A stretch of DNA of 64,000 nucleotides, taken from the IMG/VR virus record IMGVR_UViG_3300024270_000002. The stretch is one strand, 5' to 3'. The notes under the pieces are model-generated. The model was not told the DNA's origin and did no database searches. It was given only the letters and a program-made list of their open reading frames with translations. A program made the translations under genes and the position numbers. Position 1 is the stretch's first letter, and every line of letters begins with the position of its first letter. Shown here in pieces: positions 5,283 through 57,109 of this stretch. Source of the stretch: a virus (taxonomy: Duplodnaviria; Caudoviricetes).

Positions 5283-6308
5283 ATGACTGATTTTAAAGAG
5301 ATTCTTAAAACACCTGAGTACGAATTTTTGAAAACGAATCCGCACTTGGGCCATAATATTATTTTATTGGGCCTCGGTGGAAGTCATGCATACGGAACTA
5401 ATGTAGCAGGCTCAGACATTGATATCAGAGGAATTGCGCTTAACTCTAAAGAAGAGATTCTTGGCGCGGCTAATTTTGAACAGGTAGTTAATAATGAGAC
5501 TGACACTACAGTTTATTCATTGAGAAAGATTGTTTCTTTGCTTACTTCCTGTAATCCTAATACTATTGAGTTGTTGGGGCTGAAACAAGAACACTATTTG
5601 TATCTTTCATCTATCGGCCAGGAACTTCTCGATAATAAGAAGCTTTTCCTTTCAAAGAGGGCTAAGTATTCTTTCGGCGGATATGCCTTTAGCCAGCTGC
5701 GTAGACTTAATAATAAGGCAGCAAGAACAATTGCGCAGGCAGACAGAGAGCAGCATATCCTTAATAGTATTACGGCAGCTACTTATGTTTGGCCTGATAA
5801 ATATGGCTGTTTTAAGACCGGTGAGGGAGTAAAACTTTATCTTGATGACTCTGAGCAAAACGACATGGATAAAGAAATTTATATGGATATTTTCCTTACA
5901 CACTACCCGCTCAGAGATTATAAAGCAATGTGGGCAGACATGAAAAATATTATCTCTGACTATGATAAAATCGGGCATAGAAATCAGAACGCGATCGAGC
6001 GAGGAAAGCTTGGAAAGCATATGATGCATCTTGTAAGACTTTACTTGATGTGCCTTGATATTCTTGAAAAGGAAGAAATTAATACATATAGAGAAAATGA
6101 TATTCCTTTCTTGCTTGATATTCGTAATGGTAAATTTCTAGATAAGGATTCTCAGCCGCTTCCTGAATTTTATGATATGGTAAATGAGTATGAGAAACGC
6201 CTTGAGTATGCTGCTGAAAATACTTCTCTTCCAGAGAAGCCTGACTACGATGCAATTAATGAATTTCTTATGAGTGTTAATGAAAGGGTTGTTAAAGGTT
6301 TAGTATGA
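5283..6308 (+). CDS. Pol-beta superfamily nucleotidyltransferase (RlaP/YcgL-like, RNA-repair associated)
   Basis: GGSHAYGTNVAGSDIDIRG motif; NPN..ELL; KHMMHLVRL helix. Confidence 0.85.
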   Translation: MTDFKEILKTPEYEFLKTNPHLGHNIILLGLGGSHAYGTNVAGSDIDIRGIALNSKEEILGAANFEQVVNNETDTTVYSLRKIVSLLTSCNPNTIELLGLKQEHYLYLSSIGQELLDNKKLFLSKRAKYSFGGYAFSQLRRLNNKAARTIAQADREQHILNSITAATYVWPDKYGCFKTGEGVKLYLDDSEQNDMDKEIYMDIFLTHYPLRDYKAMWADMKNIISDYDKIGHRNQNAIERGKLGKHMMHLVRLYLMCLDILEKEEINTYRENDIPFLLDIRNGKFLDKDSQPLPEFYDMVNEYEKRLEYAAENTSLPEKPDYDAINEFLMSVNERVVKGLV

Positions 6309-6703
6309 AAAAGTTATTTGTGAGTGTGCCAATGAAAGGCCGCACTGAAGAAGAAATTAAGTATAGTATTGCAAAAATGCACCGTATTGCAGAAGCTTAC
6401 GAAGGTGAAGAGCTGGAGCTAATTGACTCTTGGGTGGATGAAGCTCCGCCTGCAGACTGTAATAGAAGTGCTTGGTATCTTGGAAAGTCTATTGAGAAAC
6501 TAGCTACGGCAGATGTGTTTATCGGAGTTAGTGATCTCAGCGGTTGGCCTGGCTGTAAAATTGAGTCTGACGTTGCCAGAGCTTATGATGTTAAAAGTTA
6601 TAGCGTGGATACTAAAATTGTTGTTGACTATGGTCCAATAGTACAAAGAGCTTTTCTGAATGCTACTTATAATACTATTAATAATGAAAGGAATAACGTA
6701 TAA
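6305..6703 (+). CDS. DUF4406 / nucleoside-deoxyribosyltransferase-like protein
   Basis: KLFVSVPMKG start; GCKIE..A motif. Confidence 0.55.
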   Translation: MKKLFVSVPMKGRTEEEIKYSIAKMHRIAEAYEGEELELIDSWVDEAPPADCNRSAWYLGKSIEKLATADVFIGVSDLSGWPGCKIESDVARAYDVKSYSVDTKIVVDYGPIVQRAFLNATYNTINNERNNV

Positions 6704-7332
6704 TGATTGAGTATAATAAGATTGATACTCTCTATAAGAGAGATATGGAGGGCTCCAAGAAGCTTCTTGAGGGCGAGTTTAGAAACCCTACAGTAGAGTT
6801 TTTGAAGGATAATATTTGGACATTTACCGAGAAGGTAGATGGAACAAATATCCGCGTATATTGGGATGGACATAAGGTACAGTTTGGCGGGCGTACCGAA
6901 AGAGCTCAGATTCCGTCTGACCTTGTGAATTATCTTAATTCTGTTTTCGGCACAAATGAGGCTGAGCAGATTTTTGAAGAGAAGTTCGGTGAGACTGAGG
7001 TAATTCTTTTTGGTGAGGGTTATGGTCCTAAGATTCAGAATGGCGGCCTTTATAGAAATGATGTAAGCTTTATCATGTTTGATGTGCTTATTGCCGGCAA
7101 CTACCAGCCCAGAGAGTCTGTTGAGGATATTGCAAAGGCCTTTGGTATTGATATCGTTCCTATTATCTTTGAGGGCACTATTCAGGAAGGTGTTGACTTT
7201 GTAAAGGGTCATCCTGACTCTACTATTGGAACTGCAAAAATGGAAGGTCTCGTAGGTCGCCCAAAGATAGAAATGAGAGATCGCTGCGGTAAGCGAGTTA
7301 TTGTAAAGATTAAGTGGGAAGATTTTAAGTAA
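6703..7332 (+). CDS. ATP-dependent RNA ligase (Rnl2-like adenylyltransferase domain)
   Basis: Motif I TEKVDGTN, FGEGYG, FDV, EGLVGRP, IVKIK. Confidence 0.85.
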   Translation: MIEYNKIDTLYKRDMEGSKKLLEGEFRNPTVEFLKDNIWTFTEKVDGTNIRVYWDGHKVQFGGRTERAQIPSDLVNYLNSVFGTNEAEQIFEEKFGETEVILFGEGYGPKIQNGGLYRNDVSFIMFDVLIAGNYQPRESVEDIAKAFGIDIVPIIFEGTIQEGVDFVKGHPDSTIGTAKMEGLVGRPKIEMRDRCGKRVIVKIKWEDFK

Positions 7333-8791: not shown

Positions 8792-9688
8792 ATGATTGGT
8801 TATATATACTTGACTACAAATAAATTAGATGGTATGCGTTATATAGGTAAACATCATGCAACAGCCTTTGAGCCAGAAAAGTACTTAGGTTCAAATAAGC
8901 ATTTACAGGCATCAATTAAAAAGCATGGTCGTCATAATTTTGACTGTAAATTATTACAAGAATGTTTTACAGATGGCGAATTAAATTGCGCTGAAAAAGC
9001 TTGGATTGATAAATACGATGCAGTAAATTCTCCACTATTCTACAATATCGCAGAAGGCGGTGAGGGTGGACGTGTGATGCTCAATCGAATAGCGATAAAT
9101 AATGGCTTAGTTGAAAAACGTATACTTAAAGACGAGCATATCCCAGATGGCTTTGCTTTAGGTGGTTTAAAACGTAAGGGTGGAGAAAAAGTAAGCGCCG
9201 CCAAAAAAGGCAAACCTAGCAAGAGTCGTGGAAAGCAGTGGTTTAATAACGGCATCGAGCAGACTATGGCTGATTGTTGCCCGGTAGGCTGGGTAGCAGG
9301 AAGATTGGATAATTTTTGTTCAAACAAAGAAAAAGAATTATATAATAATGGCATGGAACAAAAATTTTTTTCTGTCTCCGATGAAATACCTGAGGGTTGG
9401 ATAAAGGGAGCCCTTCAAGGGTTAGTTGTTTCTAATACAAAAGGCAGAGTTGCATACAATAATGGGTCTAAACATATCTATTTAAAAGTTGGTGAAGTTC
9501 CGCCCGAGGGCTTTGTACGTGGCTATTCCGCTGAACGCAAAAAAATAAATAGCAGCTCTGCTAGTCGATACAGTATAGGTAAGCATTGGTATAATAATGG
9601 AGTAGAACAACGCTATTTCACTGAGGGCGATACCATACCGGAGGGTTGGAAACCTGGCTGCTGCAAGACTAAAGTTAATAAAATCTAA
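8792..9688 (+). CDS. GIY-YIG (Seg-like) homing endonuclease with five NNG..P.G(W/F) repeats
   Basis: GYIYLTTN...YIGKH...YLGS...FYNIAEGG. Confidence 0.85.
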   Translation: MIGYIYLTTNKLDGMRYIGKHHATAFEPEKYLGSNKHLQASIKKHGRHNFDCKLLQECFTDGELNCAEKAWIDKYDAVNSPLFYNIAEGGEGGRVMLNRIAINNGLVEKRILKDEHIPDGFALGGLKRKGGEKVSAAKKGKPSKSRGKQWFNNGIEQTMADCCPVGWVAGRLDNFCSNKEKELYNNGMEQKFFSVSDEIPEGWIKGALQGLVVSNTKGRVAYNNGSKHIYLKVGEVPPEGFVRGYSAERKKINSSSASRYSIGKHWYNNGVEQRYFTEGDTIPEGWKPGCCKTKVNKI

Positions 9689-29036: not shown

Positions 29037-29696
29037 ATGATCCAATTTAGACGCGGAACAACTAAAAACTGGCGAAATACAAAAACAAAACTGGCTTCTG
29101 GTCAGCCTGGCTATGATAAAGATAAACATAAGATTAAAGTAGGCGATGGTGAAAAAATTTGGTCTGACCTGCCCTATGTCGGTGGCCTATCTGCAGAAGA
29201 AATTTTAAACTCTGAAAAAGCTGCAAAGAGTAGATATAATAAAGATAAAGAGGATATAACTCTTATTACCTACGGTACAGAAGCACCTGATAAAAATACT
29301 GTTGGACAGGTCTATCTACAACAATATGAAGCTGAACCAGAGACAGACTATATAGTAAGTTCTGGTATTAGCGATATTTGGACATATCAAAAGTGGAAAT
29401 CCGGTGTAGCAAAATGCTGGGGCACCTTGTCTCTAACTACTAATATTCAAAATGCTTTTGAGGGTATGGAGCTTTTTCATGATAGTAAAATGAAGAGTGT
29501 GAAATACCCTTTTACTTTTAAAGATATACCTAGTGAGACGGCTACTCTACAAAGTCCTGGTGCTATTGCTTGGTTGGCAAATAAATCTAAAAATACCAAT
29601 AGCACTTCAGGAGTATATACTATTATTAGTCCGGATAAGCAATCAACAAACGCTGTCTACAATATTTCTTTGCAGGTCGAAGGCTCCTGGAGATAA
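29037..29696 (+). CDS. tail fibre protein (Mtd-N plus C-terminal fibre tip)
   Basis: IQFRRGT...KVGDG...LPY; WTYQKWKSGVAKCWG. Confidence 0.75.
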   Translation: MIQFRRGTTKNWRNTKTKLASGQPGYDKDKHKIKVGDGEKIWSDLPYVGGLSAEEILNSEKAAKSRYNKDKEDITLITYGTEAPDKNTVGQVYLQQYEAEPETDYIVSSGISDIWTYQKWKSGVAKCWGTLSLTTNIQNAFEGMELFHDSKMKSVKYPFTFKDIPSETATLQSPGAIAWLANKSKNTNSTSGVYTIISPDKQSTNAVYNISLQVEGSWR

Positions 29697-39468: not shown

Positions 39469-40398
39469 ATGGCAAAGTTAATTATTTTATGTGGGCTTCC
39501 TGGTTCCGGAAAAAGTTATTATGCTGAGCATTTCAAGCTTATAGATGATACTTTTTATGACGGTGCTACAGTTATTCATTCATCTGATAATATCAGAGAG
39601 GAGCTTTTTGGTGACGCAGGCTCTCAGGAAGATAATGGTAGAGTATTTGAGCTTATGCGTAAGAGAACTCAAGAAGACCTTAGAGCCGGCAAGACTGTAA
39701 TTTATGATGCTACTAACGTTACCAGAAAGGCTCGTAAGTCTGCTATTGCTTGTGCTCATCCTACTAATGATACTATAGAGTGTCATGTAGTATGGGCAGA
39801 TCCTGAGGAGTGTATCCGTCGTGACGGCCTACGAGACCGTAAAGTAGGTCCTGCAGTAATTGATAAGATGCTTCGTCGCTGGCAGAGTCCTTGGCTTGAT
39901 GAAGGCTTTGATAAAGTTGAAATTCATCTAAATCAGCACGATTTTGACCAGGTTAGATATGTTGCTAGCATGACTTCTGATATGCATATTCCTCATAATA
40001 ACCCTCATCACAAGCTTGGAGTATGGGAACATTGTATGCAGGCTTATAATAATATTGTAGTAAAGCATAAGGATACTAAGCATATTTTTAATTCATTGGC
40101 TGCTGCAGCTTTTTGGCATGATATTGGAAAGCCTTATACTAAGTTTTTCAAGCATGGTGAGGATATTGCTCACTATTATGACCATCACTGCGTTGGAGGC
40201 TACCTAGCTTATGGCTTGTTTTTGAATCCTGATCATCACTTACTGCGTGATGTGGAGATGGACAATATTTGCTTTATTAGCTGGATGATAGCTAACCATA
40301 TGGAACCTTTCTTTGATTCTAATTACTATAGAGACCTTAATCCCAAGTGGAAGTGGTATATCGACGCTATCCACGAGGCAGATCTTGCTGCGCATTAA
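39469..40398 (+). CDS. polynucleotide kinase (P-loop) fused to HD domain; RNA end-healing enzyme
   Basis: CGLPGSGKS, SSDNIR, YDATN; NPHH...H...WHDIGKP...H...NHM...HEAD. Confidence 0.88.
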   Translation: MAKLIILCGLPGSGKSYYAEHFKLIDDTFYDGATVIHSSDNIREELFGDAGSQEDNGRVFELMRKRTQEDLRAGKTVIYDATNVTRKARKSAIACAHPTNDTIECHVVWADPEECIRRDGLRDRKVGPAVIDKMLRRWQSPWLDEGFDKVEIHLNQHDFDQVRYVASMTSDMHIPHNNPHHKLGVWEHCMQAYNNIVVKHKDTKHIFNSLAAAAFWHDIGKPYTKFFKHGEDIAHYYDHHCVGGYLAYGLFLNPDHHLLRDVEMDNICFISWMIANHMEPFFDSNYYRDLNPKWKWYIDAIHEADLAAH

Positions 40399-48440: not shown

Positions 48441-49280
48441 ATGTCGAAAAACTTAATTTGTGTTTGTGGCGAAGAGTTTGATAATTCCCAAAAATTTAAT
48501 AGTCATAAAAGCCACTGTAAAGAACATTATATACATAAATATGGTAGCTTAGTAGAATATGAGGCACACAAAGCTTCTAAGCACAAGGCTGCAGGCAAAG
48601 CTTTACAAGTAAAAGCCGAAACAAATAAGCAAACTGCACTTGCTGCTTGGGTTGCTGAGCGACATAAATGTGAACGCTGTGGTGAACTTATGACTGCTAA
48701 GTTTGGGTCGGGGCGCTTTTGTTCAAGAACTTGTGCAAATGCTCGGGATCATTCTGAATGGACAAAAGAAAAGATCAGTCAGGCGCTTATCAAGCCTGAA
48801 GAGCTAAAAGTAAAAAGAATTAGACCAAAAACTGAGCCTAAGCCTAAAGTAATTAAAACTCAAGAGACTAAGGTATGTGCTGTTTGTGGAATAGCTATTA
48901 GTAAACATAGCGCTACGGGTTTCTGTTCTAAACATTTAACAGAACATAAGCAACAGTTAAAGTTGCAACATTGGCTTGAAACTGGCGATATTGGTATGGC
49001 TGTTGATACTACTATTCGTGGTATTTTTAGAGATTATATTCTAGAACAGCAAAATCATTGTTGTGCTATTTGTGGCATGTCAGATACTTGGAATAATAAA
49101 CCATTAACCTTTGTATTAGATCATATTAATGGAGATGCTGCTTATTCATCTCGTGAAAATCTTAGACTGATTTGCCCAAATTGCGATAGTCAGTTAGATA
49201 CTTTTAAATCTAAAAATAAGAATTCAGCACGAACTAAACGTAAAGAATTTTTACGTGAAATACGTGAAGAAGATAAATAA
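48441..49280 (+). CDS. HNH homing endonuclease with Zn fingers
   Basis: CAICG...LDHINGD...NLRLICPNC. Confidence 0.85.
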   Translation: MSKNLICVCGEEFDNSQKFNSHKSHCKEHYIHKYGSLVEYEAHKASKHKAAGKALQVKAETNKQTALAAWVAERHKCERCGELMTAKFGSGRFCSRTCANARDHSEWTKEKISQALIKPEELKVKRIRPKTEPKPKVIKTQETKVCAVCGIAISKHSATGFCSKHLTEHKQQLKLQHWLETGDIGMAVDTTIRGIFRDYILEQQNHCCAICGMSDTWNNKPLTFVLDHINGDAAYSSRENLRLICPNCDSQLDTFKSKNKNSARTKRKEFLREIREEDK

Positions 49281-49281
49281 T

Positions 49282-49374
49282 GGAGGAATACTCAAGCTGG
49301 CCGAAGAGAGTGCTCTTGAAAAGTACCAGGACGTTAGCTGCGTCGCGGGGGTTCAAATCCCTCTTCCTCCGCCA
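49282..49374 (+). tRNA. tRNA-Ser(UGA)
   Basis: Loop CTTGAAA, long variable arm, CCA. Confidence 0.92.
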
Positions 49375-49527
49375 TAAAACAAATAGTGTAATAGTGTTAA
49401 AAGTACGATCAATAAAATAGACACCTGCGAGATTAAGCAATCCTTAACGTTGAGATATTATGGACTCAAGTTTAAGTAGGTCCCAGTTGGAGAATCGGGA
49501 GTCTGGGTTACATTATTAAGTATTTAT

Positions 49528-49604
49528 GGGCCATTAGCTTAGTTGGTTAAAGCCACCGGCTCATAACCGGTCGAGCCGAGGTTCGAGTCCTCGATGGCCC
49601 ACCA
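49528..49604 (+). tRNA. tRNA-CAU (probably Ile2)
   Basis: GGGCCAT acceptor; ACCGG-CTCATAA-CCGGT. Confidence 0.88.
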
Positions 49605-49670
49605 AAAATATATAAGAAAGTAGAGGTATTCATTATGCGATTATAAATTTTAATTAAGGAGTAAACGCAA

Positions 49671-50048
49671 ATGAATAACAGACATAAGTATTTCAGAAAT
49701 CTTCGCTACAAGCAGAAACTTGAAGCCAGATATGATAACTGGGGTGAACATCACACTGGAATTTATTTTACTACAGAAGAGCCTGATCCTAGAAACATTA
49801 GAGAGCATCAGCATGCTAGATGGTTTAGAAATGAAAAGTTTCTTGGACATGATTGGTATCTTTGCTGGCATCGTCCTGAAGTACCTTACAGTATTAGGGA
49901 ATATACTTATCATACCAGTAGCTGGAAACAGCTTATGAAGCAGCAGACCTCGAGACGTAATCGTCGTATTAAAATTACAGAAGATGATGTTGCTGTAAGA
50001 GAAAAAGGTTTCTACAAAAAAGTAGAAGATCGTTGGAATTATGACTAA
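49671..50048 (+). CDS. hypothetical basic protein
   Basis: AAGGAG RBS. Confidence 0.65.
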   Translation: MNNRHKYFRNLRYKQKLEARYDNWGEHHTGIYFTTEEPDPRNIREHQHARWFRNEKFLGHDWYLCWHRPEVPYSIREYTYHTSSWKQLMKQQTSRRNRRIKITEDDVAVREKGFYKKVEDRWNYD

Positions 50049-50468
50049 AACTTTGATCATTGATATTGTATAATATAATAAGCTGAATAGTGAGTAAAAA
50101 TCCATTCCTGGTATGCTTTCACGTACAGACTCTATCAACAAGGACCTGTACAATCCTATGATAGAGGAAGGCAGAGATTAGCGCAAAGATGGTGTAAGGG
50201 GAGCATCTGCAGCGGTTTGAGTGCTGCGGGGATCCGTTCGAATCGGATGAGCGTGCCAAACAAGAAAAATCTCTTAAAAATACTGCGAATGAAAAAGATG
50301 TGCCCACAAACTAGACTTACTACTTATTAAATTAATCACACATAAAGTAGCATTTAGTCTGGGAGTAAAAATGGATTGAAGATTAATAAGCAACTTTTCC
50401 TTGACGGTGCGCAACGGCTCGGAAACACATCTCCTATGTCTGAAACTGATATAGTTCAGCTTTTATTT

Positions 50469-50545
50469 CGCTCTGTAGCTCAGTTGGTTAGAGCAACCGG
50501 TTCATACCCGGTAGGTCCTTGGTTCAAATCCAAGCGGAGCGACCA
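50469..50545 (+). tRNA. tRNA-Met(CAU)
   Basis: ACCGG-TTCATAC-CCGGT; CCA. Confidence 0.9.
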
Positions 50546-50575
50546 TTAAAAATAAAAATATTGTGAGGTAAGTTT

Positions 50576-50899
50576 ATGAGTAGAACTAGAGCTTATACAC
50601 GTAAAATGAGAGCCAAGGCAATCAAGCGTAAGAAGAGAATTGTTTCTAATTGGCGTTGGTTTGAAAGTGGATATTATCCTCACGATGGTATGTATTCCAA
50701 AAATAAGATTCATTGTTCTTGTCCTCTTTGTAAGAGTAAAGCTTATTATGGAAAGCATCTTTTTACAAGGCAAGAAGTACACGCTCTCTTGAAGCTTCAA
50801 GAGGCAGAAAGAGAATGTACATATAATGAAGCTACTGGTACTTTTAGTATTGCTTCAGGTAATAGCGACGCAAATCAGAAGGTATCATGGGCAGAATAA
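50576..50899 (+). CDS. hypothetical protein (HCSCPLC motif)
   Basis: GAGGT RBS; KNKIHCSC motif. Confidence 0.7.
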   Translation: MSRTRAYTRKMRAKAIKRKKRIVSNWRWFESGYYPHDGMYSKNKIHCSCPLCKSKAYYGKHLFTRQEVHALLKLQEAERECTYNEATGTFSIASGNSDANQKVSWAE

Positions 50900-50900
50900 T

Positions 50901-50984
50901 GCAGGTGTAGCCGAATGGCATAGGCGCTAGTTTGAGGTACTAGTGGGTAACACCGTATGGGTTCAAGTCCCATCACCTGCACCA
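50901..50984 (+). tRNA. tRNA-Leu(GAG)
   Basis: CTAGT-TTGAGGT-ACTAG; CCA. Confidence 0.92.
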
Positions 50985-51186
50985 TAACCCTGACGACCGG
51001 AAAGTTAAATAATAGTGCACATATTATTTAGATTGGTCCTATCCGGCGCCTAAAGATTGTGTGATGAGCAGCGTGGTCCAGATGCTCCAGGGTTTAAAAT
51101 TAAGTAGCAATAAACAGTTCAATTTAAGTTTTCATTCCAAATTATTAGCTAAATTAAATGAGAATGAAAATAAGTTGAGGTTTAGC

Positions 51187-52131
51187 ATGTCTGAATTTTT
51201 TGTTTATTACGGTAAATCTAACACTAAATATCCTGCAACAGAATGTACTTGCGTTTTTTGTGGAAAAACTTTTTTAAAGGCTAATCGTTGGTTACAAAGT
51301 CGACCATTGCACGTTTGTAGTCGTGAGTGCAGCGTCGCCTATAAAGCCAAGCTTAGGTCAGATAGCTGGGCAGCTGAACAACATAAATGTCAGCATTGTG
51401 GCAAATTAATGACTGAAAAGTTTGGCACTGGCCAGTTTTGTTCTAGAGCATGTGCTAATACTAGAAAGCATTCTGATGAAACTCGTAGAAAAATTTCGGT
51501 TGCATCTACAGCTTTTTATGACATCTCAAAACTTACTGAATCGTCTTCAGAGCTTACTTGTTTGCCGCTACGTCAGCACTATCAGTCAGTAACCAGCTAT
51601 GAAAAATCACCAAATTTTTGTATTATCTGTAATACAGTTTTGCCCTATGAAAAACGGCATAATAAGACGTGTAGTAAAGCATGTAAAAATAAACTTGCGT
51701 CAATAAATGCAGTTAAAAATCAAAATGGCGGTTTAACTTCTGGCGGCGGTCCTAAGAGTACAAAACACGGTAAATATTGTGGTTTTAATTGTGATAGTAT
51801 TTATGAGTTAGTTTATCTTATTTATTGTTTAGATCACAATATTAAAATTGAACGTAATAAACAATATTTTACTTATGAATTTGAGGGTAAAATAAGAAAG
51901 TATTATCCAGATTTTTATCTTCCAGAAACTGATACATTAATTGAGCTTAAGGGTTATAAAGATTCTAAAGTTGATTTAAAATTACAAGCAGTACTTAACT
52001 CAGGAAAAGAAATTAAGATCTTGTATAAACAAGATTTATTGCCTTATTTTGAATATGTAGGAAAAACTTATAACAAAAAATATCATACAGATTATAATAA
52101 TATTGAAGAGCTTTATGATGAAAGCTGGTAA
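51187..52131 (+). CDS. PD-(D/E)XK-type homing endonuclease with Zn fingers
   Basis: DSIYELVY...YYPDFYL...IELKG; CSRxC repeats. Confidence 0.75.
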   Translation: MSEFFVYYGKSNTKYPATECTCVFCGKTFLKANRWLQSRPLHVCSRECSVAYKAKLRSDSWAAEQHKCQHCGKLMTEKFGTGQFCSRACANTRKHSDETRRKISVASTAFYDISKLTESSSELTCLPLRQHYQSVTSYEKSPNFCIICNTVLPYEKRHNKTCSKACKNKLASINAVKNQNGGLTSGGGPKSTKHGKYCGFNCDSIYELVYLIYCLDHNIKIERNKQYFTYEFEGKIRKYYPDFYLPETDTLIELKGYKDSKVDLKLQAVLNSGKEIKILYKQDLLPYFEYVGKTYNKKYHTDYNNIEELYDESW

Positions 52132-52144
52132 ATATTATTTATGT

Positions 52145-52224
52145 GGGGTTGTAGCGTAATTGGCTAGCGCGCCTGCCTTCCAAGCAGGAGATTTTTGCGA
52201 GTTCAAGTCTCGTCAGCCCCTCCA
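52145..52224 (+). tRNA. tRNA-Gly(UCC)
   Basis: CCTGC-CTTCCAA-GCAGG; U73-CCA. Confidence 0.88.
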
Positions 52225-52228
52225 TTAT

Positions 52229-52304
52229 GGTAGTATGGCCAAGTTGGTTAAGGCAACGGTCTGCAAAATCGGTATCATTGGTTCGAGTCCAATTACTACC
52301 TCCA
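52229..52304 (+). tRNA. tRNA-Cys(GCA)
   Basis: Loop CTGCAAA; U73-CCA. Confidence 0.9.
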
Positions 52305-52310
52305 ACATAT

Positions 52311-52387
52311 GGTAGCCGTAGCTCAGTTGGTAGAGCGTCAGATTGTGGCTCTGAATGTCACGTGTTCGATTCACGCCGGTTACCCCA
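52311..52387 (+). tRNA. tRNA-His(GUG)
   Basis: G-1/C73; TCAGA-TTGTGGC-TCTGA. Confidence 0.92.
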
Positions 52388-52702
52388 GCATATCTTATTA
52401 TAGGAAACCATGGGCCTGATAAGAAACTTCGATATATAGAAATAGAATAAGAAGGCTGAGTCCGTCGGTGCAGAGCAATATGAGAGAATGACTAACGGAC
52501 TACTCTCAAAAAATATTTAGCATAAAATAATTTGCTAAATTATACAAACGTCCGTAGGCAAGTATTAAAAGCCACTAAGACAATAGGAAGCTTCAACATT
52601 GGAACACTCGGAGGGCCAACTCCACATTTATCCGTTAGTATAAGGTTGTGAAATCCATAGAAGCTGCGTGAGGTTGCAACTACTCACCGGACAATTTTTA
52701 AT

Positions 52703-52781
52703 GGGGGATGGGACTGCTTGGGGTGGTCGCCAGTTTTGCAAACTGGATTTCAGATGGGTTCGAATCCCATATCCTCCACCA
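52703..52781 (+). tRNA. tRNA-Ala(UGC)
   Basis: G3-U70 pair; CCAGT-TTTGCAA-ACTGG. Confidence 0.85.
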
Positions 52782-52850
52782 TACAAACGCTCAGTTCACT
52801 TTTGTGAGTCGGTGTACAACGATCATCTTCGGAGGCTGAGCTTAAATTAT

Positions 52851-52927
52851 GCAGGCTTAACTCAGTTGGCCAGAGTGCGATCCTTACAAGTTCGAAGTCG
52901 GGAGTTCAAGTCTCTCAGCCTGCACCA
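52851..52927 (+). tRNA. tRNA-Val(UAC)
   Basis: Loop CTTACAA; CCA. Confidence 0.9.
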
Positions 52928-53131
52928 GACGAGTTCGGTTTATACTAGTTTTGTCGAATAACAAAGTCGAGAGACGAAAGGATGTTCCTCGAAGAGGTTG
53001 CAAACTCAGAGAGTTAGAAAGGTATGTAGTCCGCTCGTTGCCAATTAAATAGATAGTAAAAGGGACTCATAAGGCTGACGAGAAGTGTAGGCACTGAGGC
53101 CGGCTCGACTCCGGCTGCTATCTTTATATTT

Positions 53132-53276
53132 CGGGATGTGGCTCAGTTTGGCTAGAGCACGTGATTTGGTCGGAATGATGTTAAGTAGCATACATTATAA
53201 ATGAAGTGTGGGTTCAAATCCCATTTTCGGCACCAGGATCACGGGGTCGCAGGTTCGAATCCTGTCATCCCGACCA
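53132..53276 (+). tRNA. tRNA-Pro(UGG) interrupted by nested tRNA-like element 53169-53235
   Basis: CGGGATG/CATCCCG; TTTG|GGA loop restored on removing insert. Confidence 0.87.
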
Positions 53277-53279
53277 TAT

Positions 53280-53355
53280 GGAAAGTTGACGTACACGGTT
53301 GGCGTGCTGGACTGAAAATCCAGAGACTCTGGTTCGACTCCAGAACTTTCCACCA
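53280..53355 (+). tRNA. tRNA-Phe(GAA)
   Basis: CTGGA-CTGAAAA-TCCAG; CCA. Confidence 0.88.
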
Positions 53356-53388
53356 TTATTTTACTTAAATTTACGGTGAGGTATATTT

Positions 53389-54000
53389 ATGGCAGAGTTT
53401 TGTAAAGAGTGCTTTTTAACAAAGATTGATTCTTCAGTTAATCCTGATAATCTTGTTTTAAGTACAGAAGCAACTCTTTGTGAAGGCTGCGGTGAAAATA
53501 AGCCTGTTGTATTAGAAGTAGATAATACACCTAAGCTTACTATCGCTGAATGTCAGGTAGAAACTCAGAAGCATATTGAGGCTGTTAGAAAGTATATCAG
53601 ATTTATGATTGATAAGATTGATATGCGCGGCGTAAAGCATGATGCTTCTAAGCTTGAGAGTCCTGAAGTAGAAGTATTTGCAGAGTATACACCAAAATTG
53701 AATAATACAACATTCGGTAGTGAAGAGTACTATCAGAATTTAGATCATATGAAGTCTGCTTTAGATCATCATTATGCATCTAATCGCCACCATCCGGAGC
53801 ATTTTGTTAATGGAATTAATGATATGACATTAATTGATATTTTAGAAATGTTTTGCGACTGGAAGGCAAGCACTCTTAGACATAATGATGGAAATCTGCT
53901 GAAGAGCATTGAAACAAATGCTGAGCGCTTTAACATGGAAGGTCAGCTTAAACAGATTTTAATCAATACTGCTAGAATGATTGACGAACATGAAGATTAA
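53389..54000 (+). CDS. DUF5662-family HD-like protein with N-terminal Zn finger
   Basis: HDASKL...HHY..NRHHPEH...EMFCDW. Confidence 0.75.
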   Translation: MAEFCKECFLTKIDSSVNPDNLVLSTEATLCEGCGENKPVVLEVDNTPKLTIAECQVETQKHIEAVRKYIRFMIDKIDMRGVKHDASKLESPEVEVFAEYTPKLNNTTFGSEEYYQNLDHMKSALDHHYASNRHHPEHFVNGINDMTLIDILEMFCDWKASTLRHNDGNLLKSIETNAERFNMEGQLKQILINTARMIDEHED

Positions 54001-54056
54001 ATAAGCCTATAATATTGCTAGGTCTTATGGTCTAGCAATATTTTTATATTTAAATT

Positions 54057-54133
54057 GGGCGAGTAGTTCAGTTGATTAGAATTTCCGACTGATAATCGGG
54101 AGGTCGTAGGTTTGAGCCCTACCTCGCCCACCA
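54057..54133 (+). tRNA. tRNA-Ile(GAU)
   Basis: TCCGA-CTGATAA-TCGGG; CCA. Confidence 0.9.
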
Positions 54134-54417
54134 AAGTTTGTGCGTAGCTAATAATAAACGCTCACCGCAAGGGAAGAGGGAAAGCAGCGGTATATAAGTA
54201 GCATCACCGAACCTTATATTGACTCCCTGTGAGAGCCTTGATTGACGCAGTATAAGTGAGTCCAAAAGCCTTGATAGTAAGACTGGGGTTGAATGCAAGT
54301 AGGCATCTTTGGTGCAGTACGCTAAAAGCTATCTGAAATACCTCTGGCAAATATGTAAATTTTTAAATTTTTATTGTATAATATATTATAGTGTTTTATA
54401 AAAAGGAACTTTAATAT

Positions 54418-54969
54418 ATGTTACTAAAAAATAATGAGGTAATGGAAAAAATTCTTAAGGAAACTGAAGAAAAAAAGATTCACGTACTGTATTATAAATT
54501 AGGAGCAAATATGCAAGCTCTTAATAAAACGATGATGCAGCTTAGAAGATTGTACGGTGACAGAATTATTGCATTACCTCAGGATATAGCTAAGCTTGAA
54601 AATAATGCATTGTCTATTCAAGATCTTCTTAATATCAGAATGACTATTAATATGCTGATTATGGATAAGCTTAGAGCTGAAAATGATGTACTTCAACCAC
54701 CAGATATGAGAGTTGGTGCTGTTATGCCACCTAATGCTGGACGAGTGCCACAGAGTCAAAATGTGATACCTCAGATGACACCAGTTGCAGGCCCTAGTAA
54801 CATAACAGTACAGCCAGGAAACATGCGTCAAGAAGGTGTATATCAGCCACAGAATGGTCCTCAGAGACCTCCGGCTCCGCCTACATCAGGCAGTAACGCA
54901 ACAAAACCTGCTGCTCGGTGGTTTAATCAAGGTATTAATTTACCGTTTACAAATGATGAAAGGAATTAA
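54418..54969 (+). CDS. hypothetical protein with Pro/Gln-rich C-terminus
   Basis: ORF after promoter and RBS. Confidence 0.7.
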   Translation: MLLKNNEVMEKILKETEEKKIHVLYYKLGANMQALNKTMMQLRRLYGDRIIALPQDIAKLENNALSIQDLLNIRMTINMLIMDKLRAENDVLQPPDMRVGAVMPPNAGRVPQSQNVIPQMTPVAGPSNITVQPGNMRQEGVYQPQNGPQRPPAPPTSGSNATKPAARWFNQGINLPFTNDERN

Positions 54970-54974
54970 TTAAA

Positions 54975-55106
54975 ATGACGATTGCTGATAATATTAAGGC
55001 TATTGATCTTAGAATTGCACTTCTCAAGTCTCGTGGCGAGACTATGAATATGCGGCTTATTCGTAAGCTTGAGCGGAGAAAGCGCGCTCTGCAGACTCAA
55101 GCTTGA
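54975..55106 (+). CDS. small basic protein (MTIADNIKAIDLRIALLKSRG..., 43 aa)
   Basis: AAGGA RBS, directly follows upstream gene. Confidence 0.55.
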   Translation: MTIADNIKAIDLRIALLKSRGETMNMRLIRKLERRKRALQTQA

Positions 55107-55280
55107 GTTAATATAAAACACCATTATTGCAGTTCAATTCTGCGCTCAGAGGTTCATCCCAGTAGAGTTTATTAGGTTAAAAACTGGGTGGGATATGGTT
55201 CGATTCCATTAGGGCATGAGGTAAATAATGTAAACCTAATTTAAAATTTTAAAAAATATATTGTATAATATATTATGTTT

Positions 55281-55371
55281 GGAGGAGTACTCAAGTTGGT
55301 TAAGAGGACGCACTGCTAACGCGTTAGGCCGGTAACACGGTGCGTGGGTTCGAACCCCACCTCCTCCGCCA
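55281..55371 (+). tRNA. tRNA-Ser(GCU)
   Basis: Loop CTGCTAA, long variable arm, CCA. Confidence 0.92.
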
Positions 55372-55375
55372 ATAT

Positions 55376-55478
55376 GGATAAGTATACAAGCAGACTAAGT
55401 AGGGTAACGTAATATCCGTTGTTTAAGCTAGTGCACTTTGTTTAAACAATATCGTTGGTGCAAATCCAACCTTGTCCA
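55376..55478 (+). pseudogene. degenerate Tyr-like tRNA with extended variable arm
   Basis: GGATAAG/CTTGTCC; 6-nt ACGTAA loop; GTTGTTTAAGC/GTTTAAACAAT arm. Confidence 0.5.
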
Positions 55479-55491
55479 CTATTTATTATAT

Positions 55492-55579
55492 GGGTCGGTA
55501 TGTCTAGTTGGCGATGACACCTGACTGTAAATCAGGCACACGAGAAACATCGGGGGTTCGACTCCCTCCCGGCCCACCA
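55492..55579 (+). tRNA. tRNA-Tyr(GUA)
   Basis: CCTGA-CTGTAAA-TCAGG; CCA. Confidence 0.85.
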
Positions 55580-55582
55580 TAT

Positions 55583-55754
55583 GGGTTGATTCGCACGGGG
55601 CGAATAAGTACTATAAGGAGCTATGAGAGTAAAAACTGTGGTGTGGAGATAAGCGCCCACTGCCACCTTGCGTGAGCGTACCGGTTAAGCTCGGATGGGT
55701 CTCCTCAGAAAATTATAAGAAAAAAGAGAGGTTCGAGTCCTCTATAACCCACCA
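55583..55754 (+). ncRNA. tRNA-like scaffold with ~120-nt structured insert
   Basis: GGGTTG/TAACCC-A-CCA; AGAGG-TTCGAGT-CCTCT. Confidence 0.55.
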
Positions 55755-55990
55755 TTTAGGAAATAGCTGATGTGTAAGGCATCTTGTCGGTAAGGAGACA
55801 ATAAACCCTTTATCAGTGTGCGGAGCGCGGTACTAAGGGACGCAGCTATAATTCTCCCGGACGCAGAATTATCCCAGGCAATTGTTGCAAGGTAGCGCTC
55901 AAGTTGCTGGATCTTATAACCAGAATCGTAGCGCAACGAAGAGGATGCTGACCGTAAACAACCTCTATAAAAACAACGGTCCATTAATAT

Positions 55991-56073
55991 GCGGGTGTGG
56001 TGTAATGGCAGCCACGTATGCCTTAGGAGCATATGCCTTGTGCGTGTGGGTTCGAATCCCACCACCCGCACCA
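55991..56073 (+). tRNA. tRNA-Leu(UAG)
   Basis: TATGC-CTTAGGA-GCATA; CCA. Confidence 0.92.
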
Positions 56074-56084
56074 ATAACTTTTAT

Positions 56085-56161
56085 GGCGGTGTAGTTCAGC
56101 TGGTTAGAACGCGTGCCTGTCACGCACGAGGTCCTCGGTTCAAGTCCGTGCATCGTCGCCA
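56085..56161 (+). tRNA. tRNA-Asp(GUC)
   Basis: CGTGC-CTGTCAC-GCACG; CCA. Confidence 0.92.
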
Positions 56162-56681
56162 CTTGTAGAAATGTTAGCAAAATAAGCCACTACAGCAAAC
56201 CAGAGGCGTGGGTAACCAATCCCACAGGGCTCGCTATGAGCTCTTGGGCACGGAAGCTGCTGGGTATCAAATCGGCGGATATGCGGTTGGTCGACCTTAA
56301 GATCACCATTAATTAAAAATATTATTGGTCGCTGTGGTATGAACACAGACGCTGTCGCAGGTCGTAGCGGCGGAGCAAGGACGCGGTGAACAGACGACGT
56401 TAGTAACCAGTCTAAATGAGGTAAGGGCCATAAGCTTGCGTAAAGTGGTGCGTCTTAGCGGACAATTCCACGCCAATAAGTTATATATCGTGAGGATAGA
56501 CGAAGCATCGAGTCGGGTCTCTCATCATATGAGGCTGACAACACTAGAAGTAAGTTTGAATGTATCAGCTGTAGACTAAGAAACTGCTTCTTGAAGTGAA
56601 AAATAGGTGATGTACTTCGGTACCATGTATTTAGTAGCAAGTTATAAGTAGGTTTAAGTCCTACCTTCACAACCATTATAT

Positions 56682-56758
56682 TGCCGCTTAGCTCAGTCGG
56701 TAGTAGCACGTGACTGTTAATCACGGTGTCCTGGGTTCGAGCCCCAGAGCGGCAGCCA
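56682..56758 (+). tRNA. tRNA-Asn(GUU)
   Basis: CGTGA-CTGTTAA-TCACG; CCA. Confidence 0.9.
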
Positions 56759-56933
56759 ATAGAGTAAGAGCTACTCAAAAAGCTATTGCAAAGCTTTATA
56801 AAGCTCCATGCGATGCGAAGATGCCGCAAGTGTCTCCTGTAATAAGCCACTATGCGAAAAAGCCGTTAATGGGCCTCTGCTAAACGTTAAATACAGAGGA
56901 AAAAGACTTGTGATACAGGTACAAGTCTATTAT

Positions 56934-57009
56934 GCTCGGTTAGTCAAGTTGGTCAAGACGCGGGCCCTTCAAGCCTGAGGCAGGAGTTCGAACCTCCTAC
57001 CGAGTACCA
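56934..57009 (+). tRNA. tRNA-Glu(UUC) (C33)
   Basis: CGGGC-CCTTCAA-GCCTG; CCA. Confidence 0.85.
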
Positions 57010-57013
57010 TATA

Positions 57014-57069
57014 GAGCCAATGCTTATTTCTAACGTAAATTTTGGGAATTTAAAAGTAGTAGCTTGGCC
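57014..57069 (+). ncRNA. bulged-stem small RNA copy 4 with Pro-type UUUGGGA loop
   Basis: GCCAA-T-GCT/AGC-TTGGC; TAAAT-TTTGGGA-ATTTA. Confidence 0.75.
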
Positions 57070-57109
57070 AAATTAAAAATTTAAAAAATATATTGTATAA
57101 TATATTATA

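Follow-up and report, generated by a model that had tools for sequence, protein, structure and literature searches.

A tRNA-shaped, CCA-ended insert as a putative intron in the anticodon of a phage tRNA-Pro(UGG) gene

The tRNA introns of bacteria and their phages are group I ribozymes in the textbook account, and protein-dependent tRNA splicing is regarded as archaeal and eukaryal. Group I introns interrupt bacterial and phage tRNA genes in the anticodon loop, e.g., tRNA-Leu(UAA) between U34 and A35 (PMC3984707). For Lak megaphages, Devoto et al. (2019, Nat Microbiol, PMC6784885, Fig. 4, Table S6) also described "enigmatic" anticodon-loop introns and noted that one of them "itself may encode a tRNA"; the same remark on tRNA introns was made, with no mechanism, in a study of 262 jumbo phages (PMC13037316, 2026). 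No described splicing mechanism for tRNA-shaped phage introns was found in our literature searches.

Here we analyze a tRNA-Pro(UGG) gene with a small tRNA-shaped insert in a 64,000-nt stretch of phage DNA (hereafter the window). The insert is read as an intron of a tRNA-shaped, CCA-ended class, removed by RNase P, an RNase Z/BN-type cut and an ATP-dependent RNA ligase, a reading that we hold with evenly balanced confidence. If true, it would represent a new splicing logic, in which a ribozyme-free intron borrows the universal tRNA end-trimming enzymes and an RNA-repair ligase. Moreover, the Pnk/Rnl/RlaP "repair" genes that are widespread in phages would acquire a second function, a constitutive one, and the "enigmatic" introns of Lak megaphages and of hundreds of jumbo phages would be explained. 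The Pro locus is a good test case: it spans only 145 nt, a close relative supplies the intron-less allele, and a candidate ligase is encoded in the window itself.

Structure of the interrupted tRNA-Pro gene

The gene occupies positions 53132-53276, and its insert lies within the anticodon (Table 1). The two Pro halves, the insert with its arms and the terminal A-CCA are all located where the first-pass annotation of this DNA had placed them. When introns were allowed, ARAGORN called a gene with a 67-nt intron at the same coordinates; when they were not, it found 31 tRNAs for 19 amino acids in the 64 kb and none for Pro. The earlier claim that this is the only tRNA-Pro, with the other 19 amino acids served by uninterrupted tRNAs, is thus true within the window. 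Bacterial-mode tRNA finders miss such genes, and phage tRNA sets consequently look incomplete, as for Pro here. Deletion of 53169-53235 in silico gave a UUUGGGA loop and an ARAGORN call of tRNA-Pro(tgg), in agreement with the loop restoration that had been claimed.

Table 1. Coordinates of the features of the window that are discussed in the text
Feature	Position	Strand	Sequence features or support
Rnl2-family ATP-dependent RNA ligase, 209 aa	6703-7332	+	PF09414, 70.9 bits against a 27-bit cut-off
RlaP (RNA-ligase-associated Pol-beta) nucleotidyltransferase	5283-6308	+	PF10127, 73 bits; phrog_388
Polynucleotide-kinase-like P-loop kinase	39469-40398	+	AAA_33, 76 bits; phrog_505 polynucleotide kinase
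tRNA-Leu(UAA), sister case	43576-43764	+	102-nt tRNA-shaped intron, 43611-43712, between U34 and A35
tRNA-Pro(UGG) 5' exon	53132-53168	+	Acceptor CGGGATG, D arm, anticodon stem CGTGA, loop UUUG; ARAGORN
67-nt tRNA-shaped insert	53169-53235	+	Rfam tRNA, helix table, minimum-free-energy fold, homologues in L205 and L203
Insert acceptor strands	5' 53169-53175; 3' 53225-53231	+	GTCGGAA/TTTCGGC, 7/7 pairs
Insert D-like hairpin	about 53178-53191	+	
Insert stunted arm	about 53193-53203	+	CATT-ATA-AATG
Insert T arm	53208-53224	+	GTGGG-TTCAAAT-CCCAT
Insert discriminator A; CCA	53232; 53233-53235	+	
tRNA-Pro(UGG) 3' exon	53236-53276	+	Loop GGA, anticodon stem TCACG, variable loop, T arm, acceptor CATCCCG, A, CCA

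The insert alone scored 36 bits with the Rfam tRNA model (gathering score 29 bits). In the minimum-free-energy fold it is nested inside the Pro anticodon stem, and at the splice junction a 4-nt/7-nt internal loop separates the anticodon stem from the acceptor stem of the insert. A bulge-helix-bulge intron was therefore rejected, since that motif has two 3-nt bulges and a 4-bp helix rather than a 4-nt/7-nt internal loop between long helices, and PF01974 was absent from five relatives; an integration-site remnant was considered and rejected as well. Nor does the insert appear to be a real decoding tRNA, because its stunted arm has a 4-bp stem and a 3-nt loop in place of the 5-bp stem and 7-nt loop with U33, and ARAGORN makes no call. 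In family members of 47-50 nt this anticodon-like arm varies or is missing altogether. What the insert does have is everything in the minihelix rule for RNase P and RNase Z substrates, namely a coaxial stack (7+5 bp, where about 12 bp is expected), a purine discriminator, a 3' CCA and single-stranded flanks; G1-C72 occurs in 10 of 11 inserts, and A73 and CCA in all. Judged by these features the insert is a predicted substrate for cleavage by both enzymes.

The exact boundary of the Pro insert is ambiguous by one base, and TTTG/G...CCA/GGA and TTTGG/T...CCAG/GA (slashes mark the boundaries) yield the same product. The single boundary given in the first-pass annotation, from G+1 to CCA, is preferred by analogy with five relatives in which the boundaries cannot slide, but it has this shifted alternative.

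Empty sites, homologues and a family of inserts

In the closest relative phage (L001:9591-9668), the same Pro gene is present without the insert and differs from the window exons by one base: the 5' exon is identical base for base to L001:9591-9627, and the difference lies in the 3' exon. Intact Pro genes also occur in the syntenic place in L002 and L006, while diverged Pro(UGG) genes interrupted at the same site, with sequence differences of their own, were found in two independent metagenome contigs (L205:948-1092 and L203:679-819), so that the insert shows a presence/absence polymorphism. The two contigs came from a scan of metagenome contigs with a pattern of 22 specified bases, which gave four matches, two of them by chance. 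Other searches yielded little. The region 52000-56000 had no megablast match among GenBank phages. In distant blastn searches the Pro gene gave only exon-level matches, including an intact Pro gene in a human-faecal phage fragment, and the Leu gene gave none; no cultured phage carrying the Pro insert was found by either method. Neither the exact 33-nt junction pattern nor the Pro family pattern matched in IMG/VR, and in the GTDB genomes the family pattern had only two chance matches, in coding DNA.

The window derives from an uncultured assembly, and an assembly chimera, which the first-pass annotation had considered, or a sequencing artefact could have put a tRNA-like fragment into the Pro gene. 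However, two contigs from a different assembly carry homologous inserts, with their own differences, at precisely this site; nine other genes share the design, and the boundaries are base-exact. The chance that the insert is such an artefact is close to negligible.

When the interrupted genes of the window, L203 and L205 were aligned, all helix cells paired (108/108). Eight pairs were changed on both sides, i.e., two in the acceptor, one in the D stem and two in the anticodon stem of the tRNA, and one in the D-like hairpin and two in the T stem of the insert. In the controls, slid alignments gave no such pairs, and the observed number was attained in 1 of 500 shuffles. The insert is 95.7% identical between the window and L205 and 77.9% between the window and L203; the exons of the window and L205 are only 88.5% identical. 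Since the insert is more alike than the exons in this last pair, some of the exon divergence may pre-date a recent intron transfer, and the argument from compensatory changes may be weakened to that extent, but it still stands.

The scan for further split phage tRNAs that had been proposed was carried out as a structural scan of our own, checked with ARAGORN and controlled with all 64 end triplets, because the MAFFT alignment of inserts of very unequal length was too poor for a covariance model. Among the related phages it gave 10 unique inserts, in Leu(UAA), Lys(UUU), Asn(GUU), Ile(UAU) and Pro(UGG) tRNAs, at positions 32/33, 34/35 and 35/36. In nine of the 10, the acceptor or the T stem was fully paired with at most one mismatch in the other stem, the only exception being the Ile insert of L024, which had two T-stem mismatches. 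The T stem abutted the 3' strand of the acceptor in every case, as in real tRNAs, and the discriminator was always A, a base on which the scan made no demand. With the end triplet left free, 108 candidates ended in CCA, of which 11 were validated; the remaining 63 triplets together had 9,340 candidates and 5 validated cases, every one of them spurious. Five inserts have boundaries that cannot slide, and these inserts start precisely at +1 and have the A of CCA as their last base. Upon removal, each of the 10 unique cases regained an anticodon loop of exactly 7 nt, with U33 in place and an anticodon that makes sense.

The sister case in the window, the Leu(UAA) insert, scored 39.4 bits by itself with the Rfam tRNA model and has homologues in L129 (103 nt) and in L006 and L119 (67 nt). 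It had been called largely unrelated to the Pro insert. That description is contradicted by the 67-nt Leu insert of a relative, which has the same architecture and is alike at 50 of 67 positions (shuffles, 39.3 +/- 2.2). The Pro and Leu inserts of the window belong to the same family and represent separate insertions; the two cases are thus independent, as proposed earlier, with respect to insertion but not as inventions. The element is probably mobile or selfish.

The same Leu(UAA) site is occupied by a 237-nt group-I-like intron in L001 (Rfam Intron_gpI 28.6 bits, below the gathering score; at U34/A35) and by ORF-bearing introns in other IMG/VR phages. Such cases could suggest a self-splicing or self-cleaving miniature ribozyme that needs no protein nuclease, as the tRNA introns so far known from bacteria and phages belong to group I and lie at the same loop positions. 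However, the family members (47-103 nt) are far smaller than any group I core, the Pro insert matches no Rfam ribozyme or intron family at E<=1, and what the family conserves is the ordinary acceptor/T-arm stack of a tRNA. The intron closes with A, where group I introns have a terminal G, and the base before the intron is G instead of U. We regard a ribozyme as very improbable. A group I intron proper was rejected on the same bases at −1 and at the end, on its length (67 nt against more than about 200 nt) and on the lack of a match to RF00028 at E<=1, a model which found nothing at that threshold in the whole of 43000-61000.

The insert might also not be removed at all. The Pro gene could be inactivated and the unit could serve only to make a mini-tRNA, set free by RNase P and 3' trimming, e.g., a decoy for tRNA-targeting defence nucleases or a protein handle, or a dead gene could have been hit by a mobile element. 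The insert possesses every feature for maturation as a stable tRNA-like RNA, is, when the window is compared with L205, better conserved than the exons, and shares the tRNA island with other tRNA mimics. On the other hand, the Pro exons carry five compensatory double substitutions and form a perfect cloverleaf in three lineages with zero unpaired cells, and this is the sole Pro tRNA in an otherwise complete 20-amino-acid set in the window. Similarly, the window and L129 Leu(UAA) exons differ by compensatory changes in the acceptor, anticodon and T stems, although their homologous introns are 82.5% identical, and a normal anticodon loop is regained in all unique cases of the family. Loss of function of the Pro gene is accordingly improbable.

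Because of the empty-site alleles, the compensatory pairs, the insert family and the exact boundaries, the interrupted Pro gene is under selection and its insert behaves as an intron. The earlier suggestion of a maintained mechanism rather than an accident gains from the empty-site allele, from the compensatory exon changes, from the spread of the insert family over five tRNAs, and from the RNA ligase, RlaP and Pnk-like genes in the window.

A proposed splicing route and its candidate enzymes

That the insert is excised at all is, in our judgment, quite probable; whether RNase P, an RNase Z-type enzyme and the phage ligase carry out the excision and joining is about equally balanced for and against. 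By the proposed route, the insert would be transcribed as part of pre-tRNA-Pro and would stand out from the Pro anticodon loop as a minihelix of acceptor and T arm, in which the D and anticodon arms are vestigial. RNase P would cut 5' of the insert G+1 and leave a 3'-OH on the Pro 5' half, and an RNase Z/BN-type activity would cut right after the insert CCA and leave a 5'-phosphate on the Pro 3' half. The halves would be held together by the Pro acceptor, D and anticodon stems until an ATP-dependent ligase, possibly that encoded at 6703-7332, joined them. The products would be a normal tRNA-Pro(UGG) of 78 nt and a free mini-tRNA, and the expected spliced junction is GUGAUUUGGGAUCAC, i.e., ...CGUGAUUUG joined to GGAUCACG....

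The ends left by RNase P and RNase Z, 3'-OH and 5'-P, are those that Rnl2-type ligases take as substrates. The weakest step is the 3' cut, because CCA can inhibit RNase Z in some bacteria. The RNase Z of Thermotoga, E. coli and archaea cuts directly after an encoded CCA and prefers a matured 5' end; elsewhere, e.g., in Bacillus subtilis with Mg2+, the enzyme is strongly inhibited by an encoded CCA (PMC7479834). In the window, 29 of the 31 ordinary tRNAs encode CCA followed by a trailer, so the infected cell must already own a CCA-exposing activity.

The Rnl2-family ligase is the "obvious candidate" for the sealing enzyme. Its motif I (KVDG, residues 44-47) fits KxDG, and homologues of the family occur in three relatives with such introns (G002, G004 and G005); the protein is without the Rnl2 C-terminal domain and gave weak matches to T4 Rnl2 structures. 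Directly upstream lies the gene for RlaP, the function of whose family is treated in a bioRxiv preprint (10.64898/2025.12.29.696909). The Pnk-like protein, a candidate end-healing enzyme, is encoded at the edge of the tRNA island; it matched Pnkp kinase domain structures (4jst/4gp7) and, weakly, TIGR04075 (bacterial Pnkp), its C-terminal part bears a weak likeness to the HD region of CCA enzymes, and a related-locus search with it gave no loci. A PF09511 (Rnl1) search had zero matches, as did its controls, and is therefore uninformative. Genes for RNA ligase, RlaP and Pnk would be expected here even if there were no introns, because large phages commonly encode them for repair against anticodon nucleases (PMC7824862). 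Competing splicing machinery was not found: the insert has no group I match, and neither RtcB nor EndA was detected in the relatives (PF01974 was searched in five, with positive archaeal controls). The island also holds a YrlA-like element and a GOLLD RNA, identified with Rfam.

The presence of the Pnk-like kinase, with its possible HD phosphoesterase part, raises the question of a different nuclease, since healing would be superfluous in the RNase P/RNase Z route. A dedicated endonuclease, either encoded by the phage or an anticodon-nuclease-like enzyme of the host, could recognize the insert and leave 2',3'-cyclic phosphate and 5'-OH ends, which Pnk-HD would heal and the ligase would seal, as in yeast and plant splicing or with T4 Pnkp/Rnl1. 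Several uncharacterised or endonuclease-like ORFs lie between the tRNAs of the island, and the insertion positions of the family are those at which anticodon nucleases cut, a point in favor of such an enzyme. However, the island ORFs resemble free-standing homing endonucleases (HNH, GIY-YIG, PD-(D/E)XK) and no EndA-like enzyme was found in the relatives. Moreover, the base-exact +1 and CCA ends, the kept discriminator A and the full acceptor/T-arm stack would have no explanation. A dedicated endonuclease is thus rather unlikely.

If removal does proceed through RNase P and RNase Z, the CCA-ended mini-tRNA inserts could constitute a third tRNA-splicing route and the first protein-dependent one in the bacterial world, in which the intron ends pose as tRNA ends, the two maturation enzymes cut and a phage repair ligase joins. 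The inserts could possibly spread by the reverse path, in which the ligase would place a freed mini-tRNA in an anticodon loop opened by a defence nuclease and the joined RNA would then be copied back into DNA. This wider proposal is tentative, and we place it somewhat short of an even chance. That the insertion sites mark anticodon-nuclease cut sites and that the inserts spread by mis-repair is only a thought.

Comparison with known splicing and repair systems

The Pro insert is best regarded as a variant of the Lak-type tRNA-shaped introns, a kind already remarked upon in print and thus not wholly new. In both, the intron lies in the anticodon loop of a phage tRNA, is itself tRNA-like and restores a normal tRNA upon removal. 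Both also show presence/absence polymorphism among relatives, unusual conservation of the intron and no Rfam intron match. However, in the Lak introns about 30 nt with a hairpin precede the tRNA-like part, which ends at or near the discriminator without CCA, whereas the Pro insert starts at acceptor +1 and ends in CCA. RNase P alone would not remove this Lak 5' extension. Encoded CCA is also absent from the Lak tRNAs of Table S6, and Pro(UGG) is not among the Lak cases. The phage studied here is roughly of the 200-kb class, and its long ORFs read under the standard code.

With the group I introns, the tRNA-shaped inserts share the same loop positions and a patchy, mobile-looking distribution. 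They differ in their small size, in having no ribozyme core, terminal G or homing-endonuclease ORF and, for the Pro insert, in having no U at −1; the conserved structure is instead an acceptor/T-arm stack ending in ACCA. The archaeal and eukaryal introns (EndA/Sen, with RtcB or Trl1) are likewise short, ribozyme-free and located in the anticodon loop, and protein removal and resealing is also what is proposed here. However, no bulge-helix-bulge is present in our case, the position is 35/36 or 34/35 rather than 37/38, EndA and RtcB are lacking in the relatives, and the setting is bacterial.

T4 Pnkp and Rnl1 can replace yeast Trl1. In T4-type repair (Pnkp/Rnl1, or Rnl2/RlaP), a kinase and an ATP-dependent ligase of the phage reseal tRNA anticodon loops broken by PrrC-type anticodon nucleases, and these gene families are also found in the window (for context see PMC7824862). 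Nevertheless, T4 repair answers host damage to an intact tRNA, while here an encoded insert would itself program the break, and no healing would be needed in the RNase P/RNase Z route.

Another parallel is given by mitochondrial tRNA punctuation and the MALAT1 mascRNA, in which a tRNA-shaped module is cut from a longer transcript by the tRNA end-maturation enzymes. The flanks stay unjoined in those systems, whereas in the interrupted tRNA-Pro gene the rejoining of the flanks would be the purpose.

The interrupted tRNA-Pro

ARAGORN in normal mode called 31 tRNAs for 19 amino acids in the window, with Pro missing, and the first-pass annotation was right that the other 19 amino acids have uninterrupted tRNAs. 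With introns allowed, a gene with an intron of 67 nt was reported at 53132-53276, and when the insert was removed in silico the program called tRNA-Pro(tgg). The insert has an acceptor stem of 7 bp (GTCGGAA/TTTCGGC, including two G-U pairs), a short D-like hairpin, a stunted third arm (CATT-ATA-AATG) and a canonical T arm (GTGGG-TTCAAAT-CCCAT) adjoining the acceptor 3' strand, followed by a discriminator A and CCA. Scored alone with the Rfam tRNA model, it reached 36 bits against a cut-off of 29 bits. In the minimum-free-energy fold of the 145-mer, the acceptor and T helices of the insert were nested inside the intact acceptor, T and anticodon stems of tRNA-Pro. The coordinates and elements first described for this locus were exact; the boundary is ambiguous by one base, since the next base is G on both sides and the insert can be slid accordingly. 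The window (~37% GC) is phage-like in content and belongs to a large genome; its features and those of related loci are listed in the table.

Features of the window and of related loci (L numbers, IMG/VR or metagenome contigs)
Feature	Location	Strand	Remark
Pro(UGG) 5' half	window, ends 53168	+	CGTGA-TTTG at end
Pro(UGG) insert, 67 nt	window, 53169-53235	+	from sequence reading
Pro(UGG) 3' half	window, starts 53236	+	GGA-TCACG at start
Pro(UGG), 68-nt insert	L205:948-1092		metagenome pattern match
Pro(UGG), 63-nt insert	L203:679-819		metagenome pattern match
Leu(UAA), 102-nt insert	window, 43611-43712
Leu(UAA), 103-nt insert	L129
Leu(UAA), 67-nt insert	L006/L119
Leu(UAA), 47-nt insert	L024
Leu(UAA), 50-nt insert	L189:2239-2288		CCA-ended minihelix; unrelated small IMG/VR contig
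Lys(UUU), 78-nt insert	L129
Asn(GUU), 75-nt insert	L001
Asn(GUU), 50-nt insert	L031
Ile(UAU), 74-nt insert	L024
Group-I-like intron, 237 nt, in Leu(UAA)	L001:1527-1763		Intron_gpI, 28.6 bits, below cut-off
RNA ligase, candidate	window, 6703-7332		PF09414, 70.9 bits; KVDG motif
RlaP nucleotidyltransferase	window, just upstream of ligase
Pnk-like kinase	window, 39469-40398		edge of RNA-gene island
RNA-gene island, 16 kb	window, ~43.3-59.3 kb	+
3,068-aa ORF	window
Tail lysozymes	window
BspA-type LRR proteins	window
ORF with Mtd_N domain	window, 29037-29696		major tropism determinant N-terminus
Free-standing homing-endonuclease-like ORFs	window, 8792-9688, 46822-47619, 48441-49280, 51061-52131		PD-(D/E)XK-like, HNH and GIY-YIG/SegE types; between tRNA genes and elsewhere
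Circularly permuted tRNA-like element	window, 43349-43452		order T arm, acceptor hairpin (CCA in loop), D arm; YrlA (Y RNA-like) model 39 bits, under 69-bit cut-off
Weaker YrlA-like matches	window, 57522-57672 and elsewhere
tRNA with 8-nt anticodon loop	window, 45448-45522		ARAGORN gives four-base anticodon (aaag)
tRNA-like element, 110 nt	window, 45615-45724		acceptor and T arms, irregular middle, 3' end CTA not CCA; Rfam tRNA 37.8 bits; kept in L006:4487-4597
tRNA-like gene, GUA	window, 47933-48095		complete Tyr-type anticodon arm; ~90-nt insertion replacing variable arm; miscalled by ARAGORN as Asn with intron
GUA tRNA-like gene in three relatives	L001:3691-3863; L002:998-1160; L006:5894-6056		lengths 163-173 nt
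GOLLD RNA, within tRNA island	window, 57469-57989		RF02032, 160 bits, cut-off 150 bits; kept in closest relative, L001:15939-16454
tRNA-Met and tRNA-Thr	window, 59073-59224		zero spacer; Met ends ACC and next base is G+1 of Thr, so Met CCA incompletely encoded
Drum RNA in tRNA island of a relative	L031:9029-9140		RF02958, 68.8 bits; RNA ligase gene of this relative ~1.2 kb upstream

From the Mtd_N domain, a target of a diversity-generating retroelement may be suspected, and with it a reverse transcriptase encoded by the genome.

Intact and interrupted Pro genes compared

Eighty IMG/VR loci were fetched around homologues of the DUF5662 gene just downstream of tRNA-Pro. In the closest of them, L001 (DUF5662 protein 90% identical), tRNA-Pro is uninterrupted at the unchanged place and differs by one base from the joined exons of the window, and Pro genes are also intact at the corresponding place in L002 and L006. 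Metagenome contigs were searched with a degenerate pattern (22 bases specified) taken from the Pro loop and family-type insert ends, and four matches were obtained; two were interrupted Pro(UGG) genes (in contigs L205 and L203) and the other two were chance matches in coding DNA. The gene order Ser-Tyr-Leu-Asp is common to the tRNA arrays of L205, L203 and the window. An assembly chimera was excluded, because the inserts of the two contigs come from another assembly and have substitutions of their own.

When the three interrupted Pro genes were aligned with the nested structure written out, 108 of 108 cells were standard pairs. Both sides had changed in eight pairs, five of them in tRNA-Pro itself (acceptor stem, two; D stem, one; anticodon stem, two) and three in the insert (D-like hairpin, one; T stem, two). 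No both-side changes were found when partners were slid by 1-3 columns, and the observed values were reached by one of 500 shuffles. The Pro exons of the window were 88.5% identical to those of L205 and equally to those of L203, inside the range of the neighbouring intact tRNAs. Between the window and L129, the Leu(UAA) genes showed compensatory differences in the acceptor, anticodon and T stems, and their introns are homologous (82.5% identical). Comparison of these sequences indicates that selection acts on the interrupted Pro gene. Since a perfect cloverleaf is kept around an insert that would destroy decoding, the simplest reading is that the insert is excised from the RNA, and it is probably removed to yield a working tRNA-Pro. 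The inserts of the window and L205 were 95.7% identical, closer than the exons, and the exon bases adjacent to the junction differ. It is possible that the insert was recently transferred between diverged Pro genes without co-conversion, in which case part of the exon divergence may be older than the insertion.

A family of CCA-ended inserts

A structural scan of ~2.4 Mb of loci was made for inserts of 36-199 nt with a CCA end, at least six of seven acceptor pairs, a 5-bp flanking stem and a restored 7-nt loop with U33; a case was accepted when ARAGORN recognized a tRNA in the joined flanks and the junction fell within its anticodon loop. Ten unique cases were obtained, all in sense orientation. 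When all 64 end triplets were allowed in a control of 119 kb, 11 of 108 candidates with CCA were validated, and the other 63 triplets pooled gave five of 9,340, all five spurious. Every one of the ten inserts has a discriminator A, a feature not among the scan criteria, and in each a T stem of 5 bp with a loop of 7 nt is stacked directly on the acceptor; those of 47-50 nt, the shortest, approximate a bare acceptor/T-arm minihelix. Acceptor positions 3, 4, 6 and 7 covary among members, and G1-C72, U2-G71 and G5-U68 are common. Seven inserts lie at 34/35 (including that of L024 Leu, which is equally readable at 35/36), that of the window Pro gene lies at 35/36 and that of L189 at 32/33, and therefore the class is not bound to the 34/35 site.

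The first-pass annotation considered the Pro insert largely unrelated to the Leu insert, which was too strong: the Pro insert and the 67-nt Leu insert of L006 agree at 50 of 67 bases, compared with 39.3 +/- 2.2 (maximum 48) in shuffles. Judged by these similarities, the Pro and Leu inserts are diverged members of one family. L197 (- strand, gene start ~1553) has a tRNA-Leu-like 5' half and, after a further ~190 nt, a T arm and acceptor; the ~190 nt seem to include another tRNA 5' half, and this may be a larger nested arrangement.

The kind of insert at one site, between U34 and A35 of Leu(UAA), differs among phages. L001 has a group-I-like intron at the site identical to that of the tRNA-shaped intron of the window, and other IMG/VR phages have long ORF-bearing introns (L177, L182-L184, L190, L198) or none. 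Different mobile introns thus commonly land in the anticodon loops of phage tRNAs, and the tRNA-shaped introns are one such kind.

Proposed removal route and published counterparts

In five family members whose boundaries cannot be slid, the insert ends exactly at its acceptor +1 and at the A of CCA, and these two boundaries are the phosphodiester bonds cut by tRNA end-maturation enzymes. Cleavage by RNase P gives a leader with a 3'-OH and cleavage by RNase Z a trailer with a 5'-phosphate, precisely the pair of ends that ATP-dependent Rnl-type ligases join. In the proposed route, RNase P would cut at the 5' end of the insert and leave a 3'-OH on the Pro 5' half as leader, an RNase Z-type cut after the insert CCA would leave a 5'-phosphate on the Pro 3' half as trailer, and an Rnl-type ATP-dependent ligase would join the halves. 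We give the route about an even chance. The features required by bacterial RNase P are present in the insert, i.e., an acceptor/T-arm stack, G1-C72, A73 with CCA, and single-stranded positions -1 to -4. Encoded CCA, followed by a trailer or the next tRNA, was found in 29 of the 31 ordinary window tRNAs and in nearly all tRNAs of the insert-carrying relatives, so encoded CCA ends must already be made accessible in the infected cell. Of the proposed steps the 3' cut is the least certain, as the RNase Z data come from organisms that may not be the host: in Thermotoga maritima, E. coli (RNase BN) and archaea, RNase Z cleaves immediately 3' of an encoded CCA, accepts minimal acceptor-stem substrates and favours those with a 5' end already matured, whereas CCA inhibits that of B. 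subtilis unless Co2+ is present (PMC7479834).

Beside the candidate ligase, the window encodes an RlaP, a family whose biochemistry has been described (bioRxiv 10.64898/2025.12.29.696909). The ligase family was found in three related phage genomes or fragments (G002, G004 and G005), all with such introns, and in the 12.9-kb fragment G005 the ligase lies ~5 kb from an interrupted Asn gene. A clear ligase match was missing in two relatives, which are only 63-64% complete, and neither RtcB nor EndA was found in the relatives examined. RNA-repair genes are common in large phages regardless (PMC7824862).

Full-text literature searches found no described mechanism for such introns. Lak megaphage tRNAs were reported to have "enigmatic introns", and that of tRNA-Thr(TGT) "itself may encode a tRNA" (Devoto et al. 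2019, PMC6784885); similarly, in a 2026 survey of 262 jumbo phages such introns "could encode another tRNA" (PMC13037316). However, the Lak introns (PMC6784885, Table S6) have ~30 nt with a hairpin before the tRNA-like part, unlike the window insert, and the tRNA-like part ends without CCA, like the Lak tRNA genes shown there, whereas the window insert has CCA. Given this difference in design, the window locus differs from, yet belongs with, a kind of intron already remarked on in print and left unexplained.
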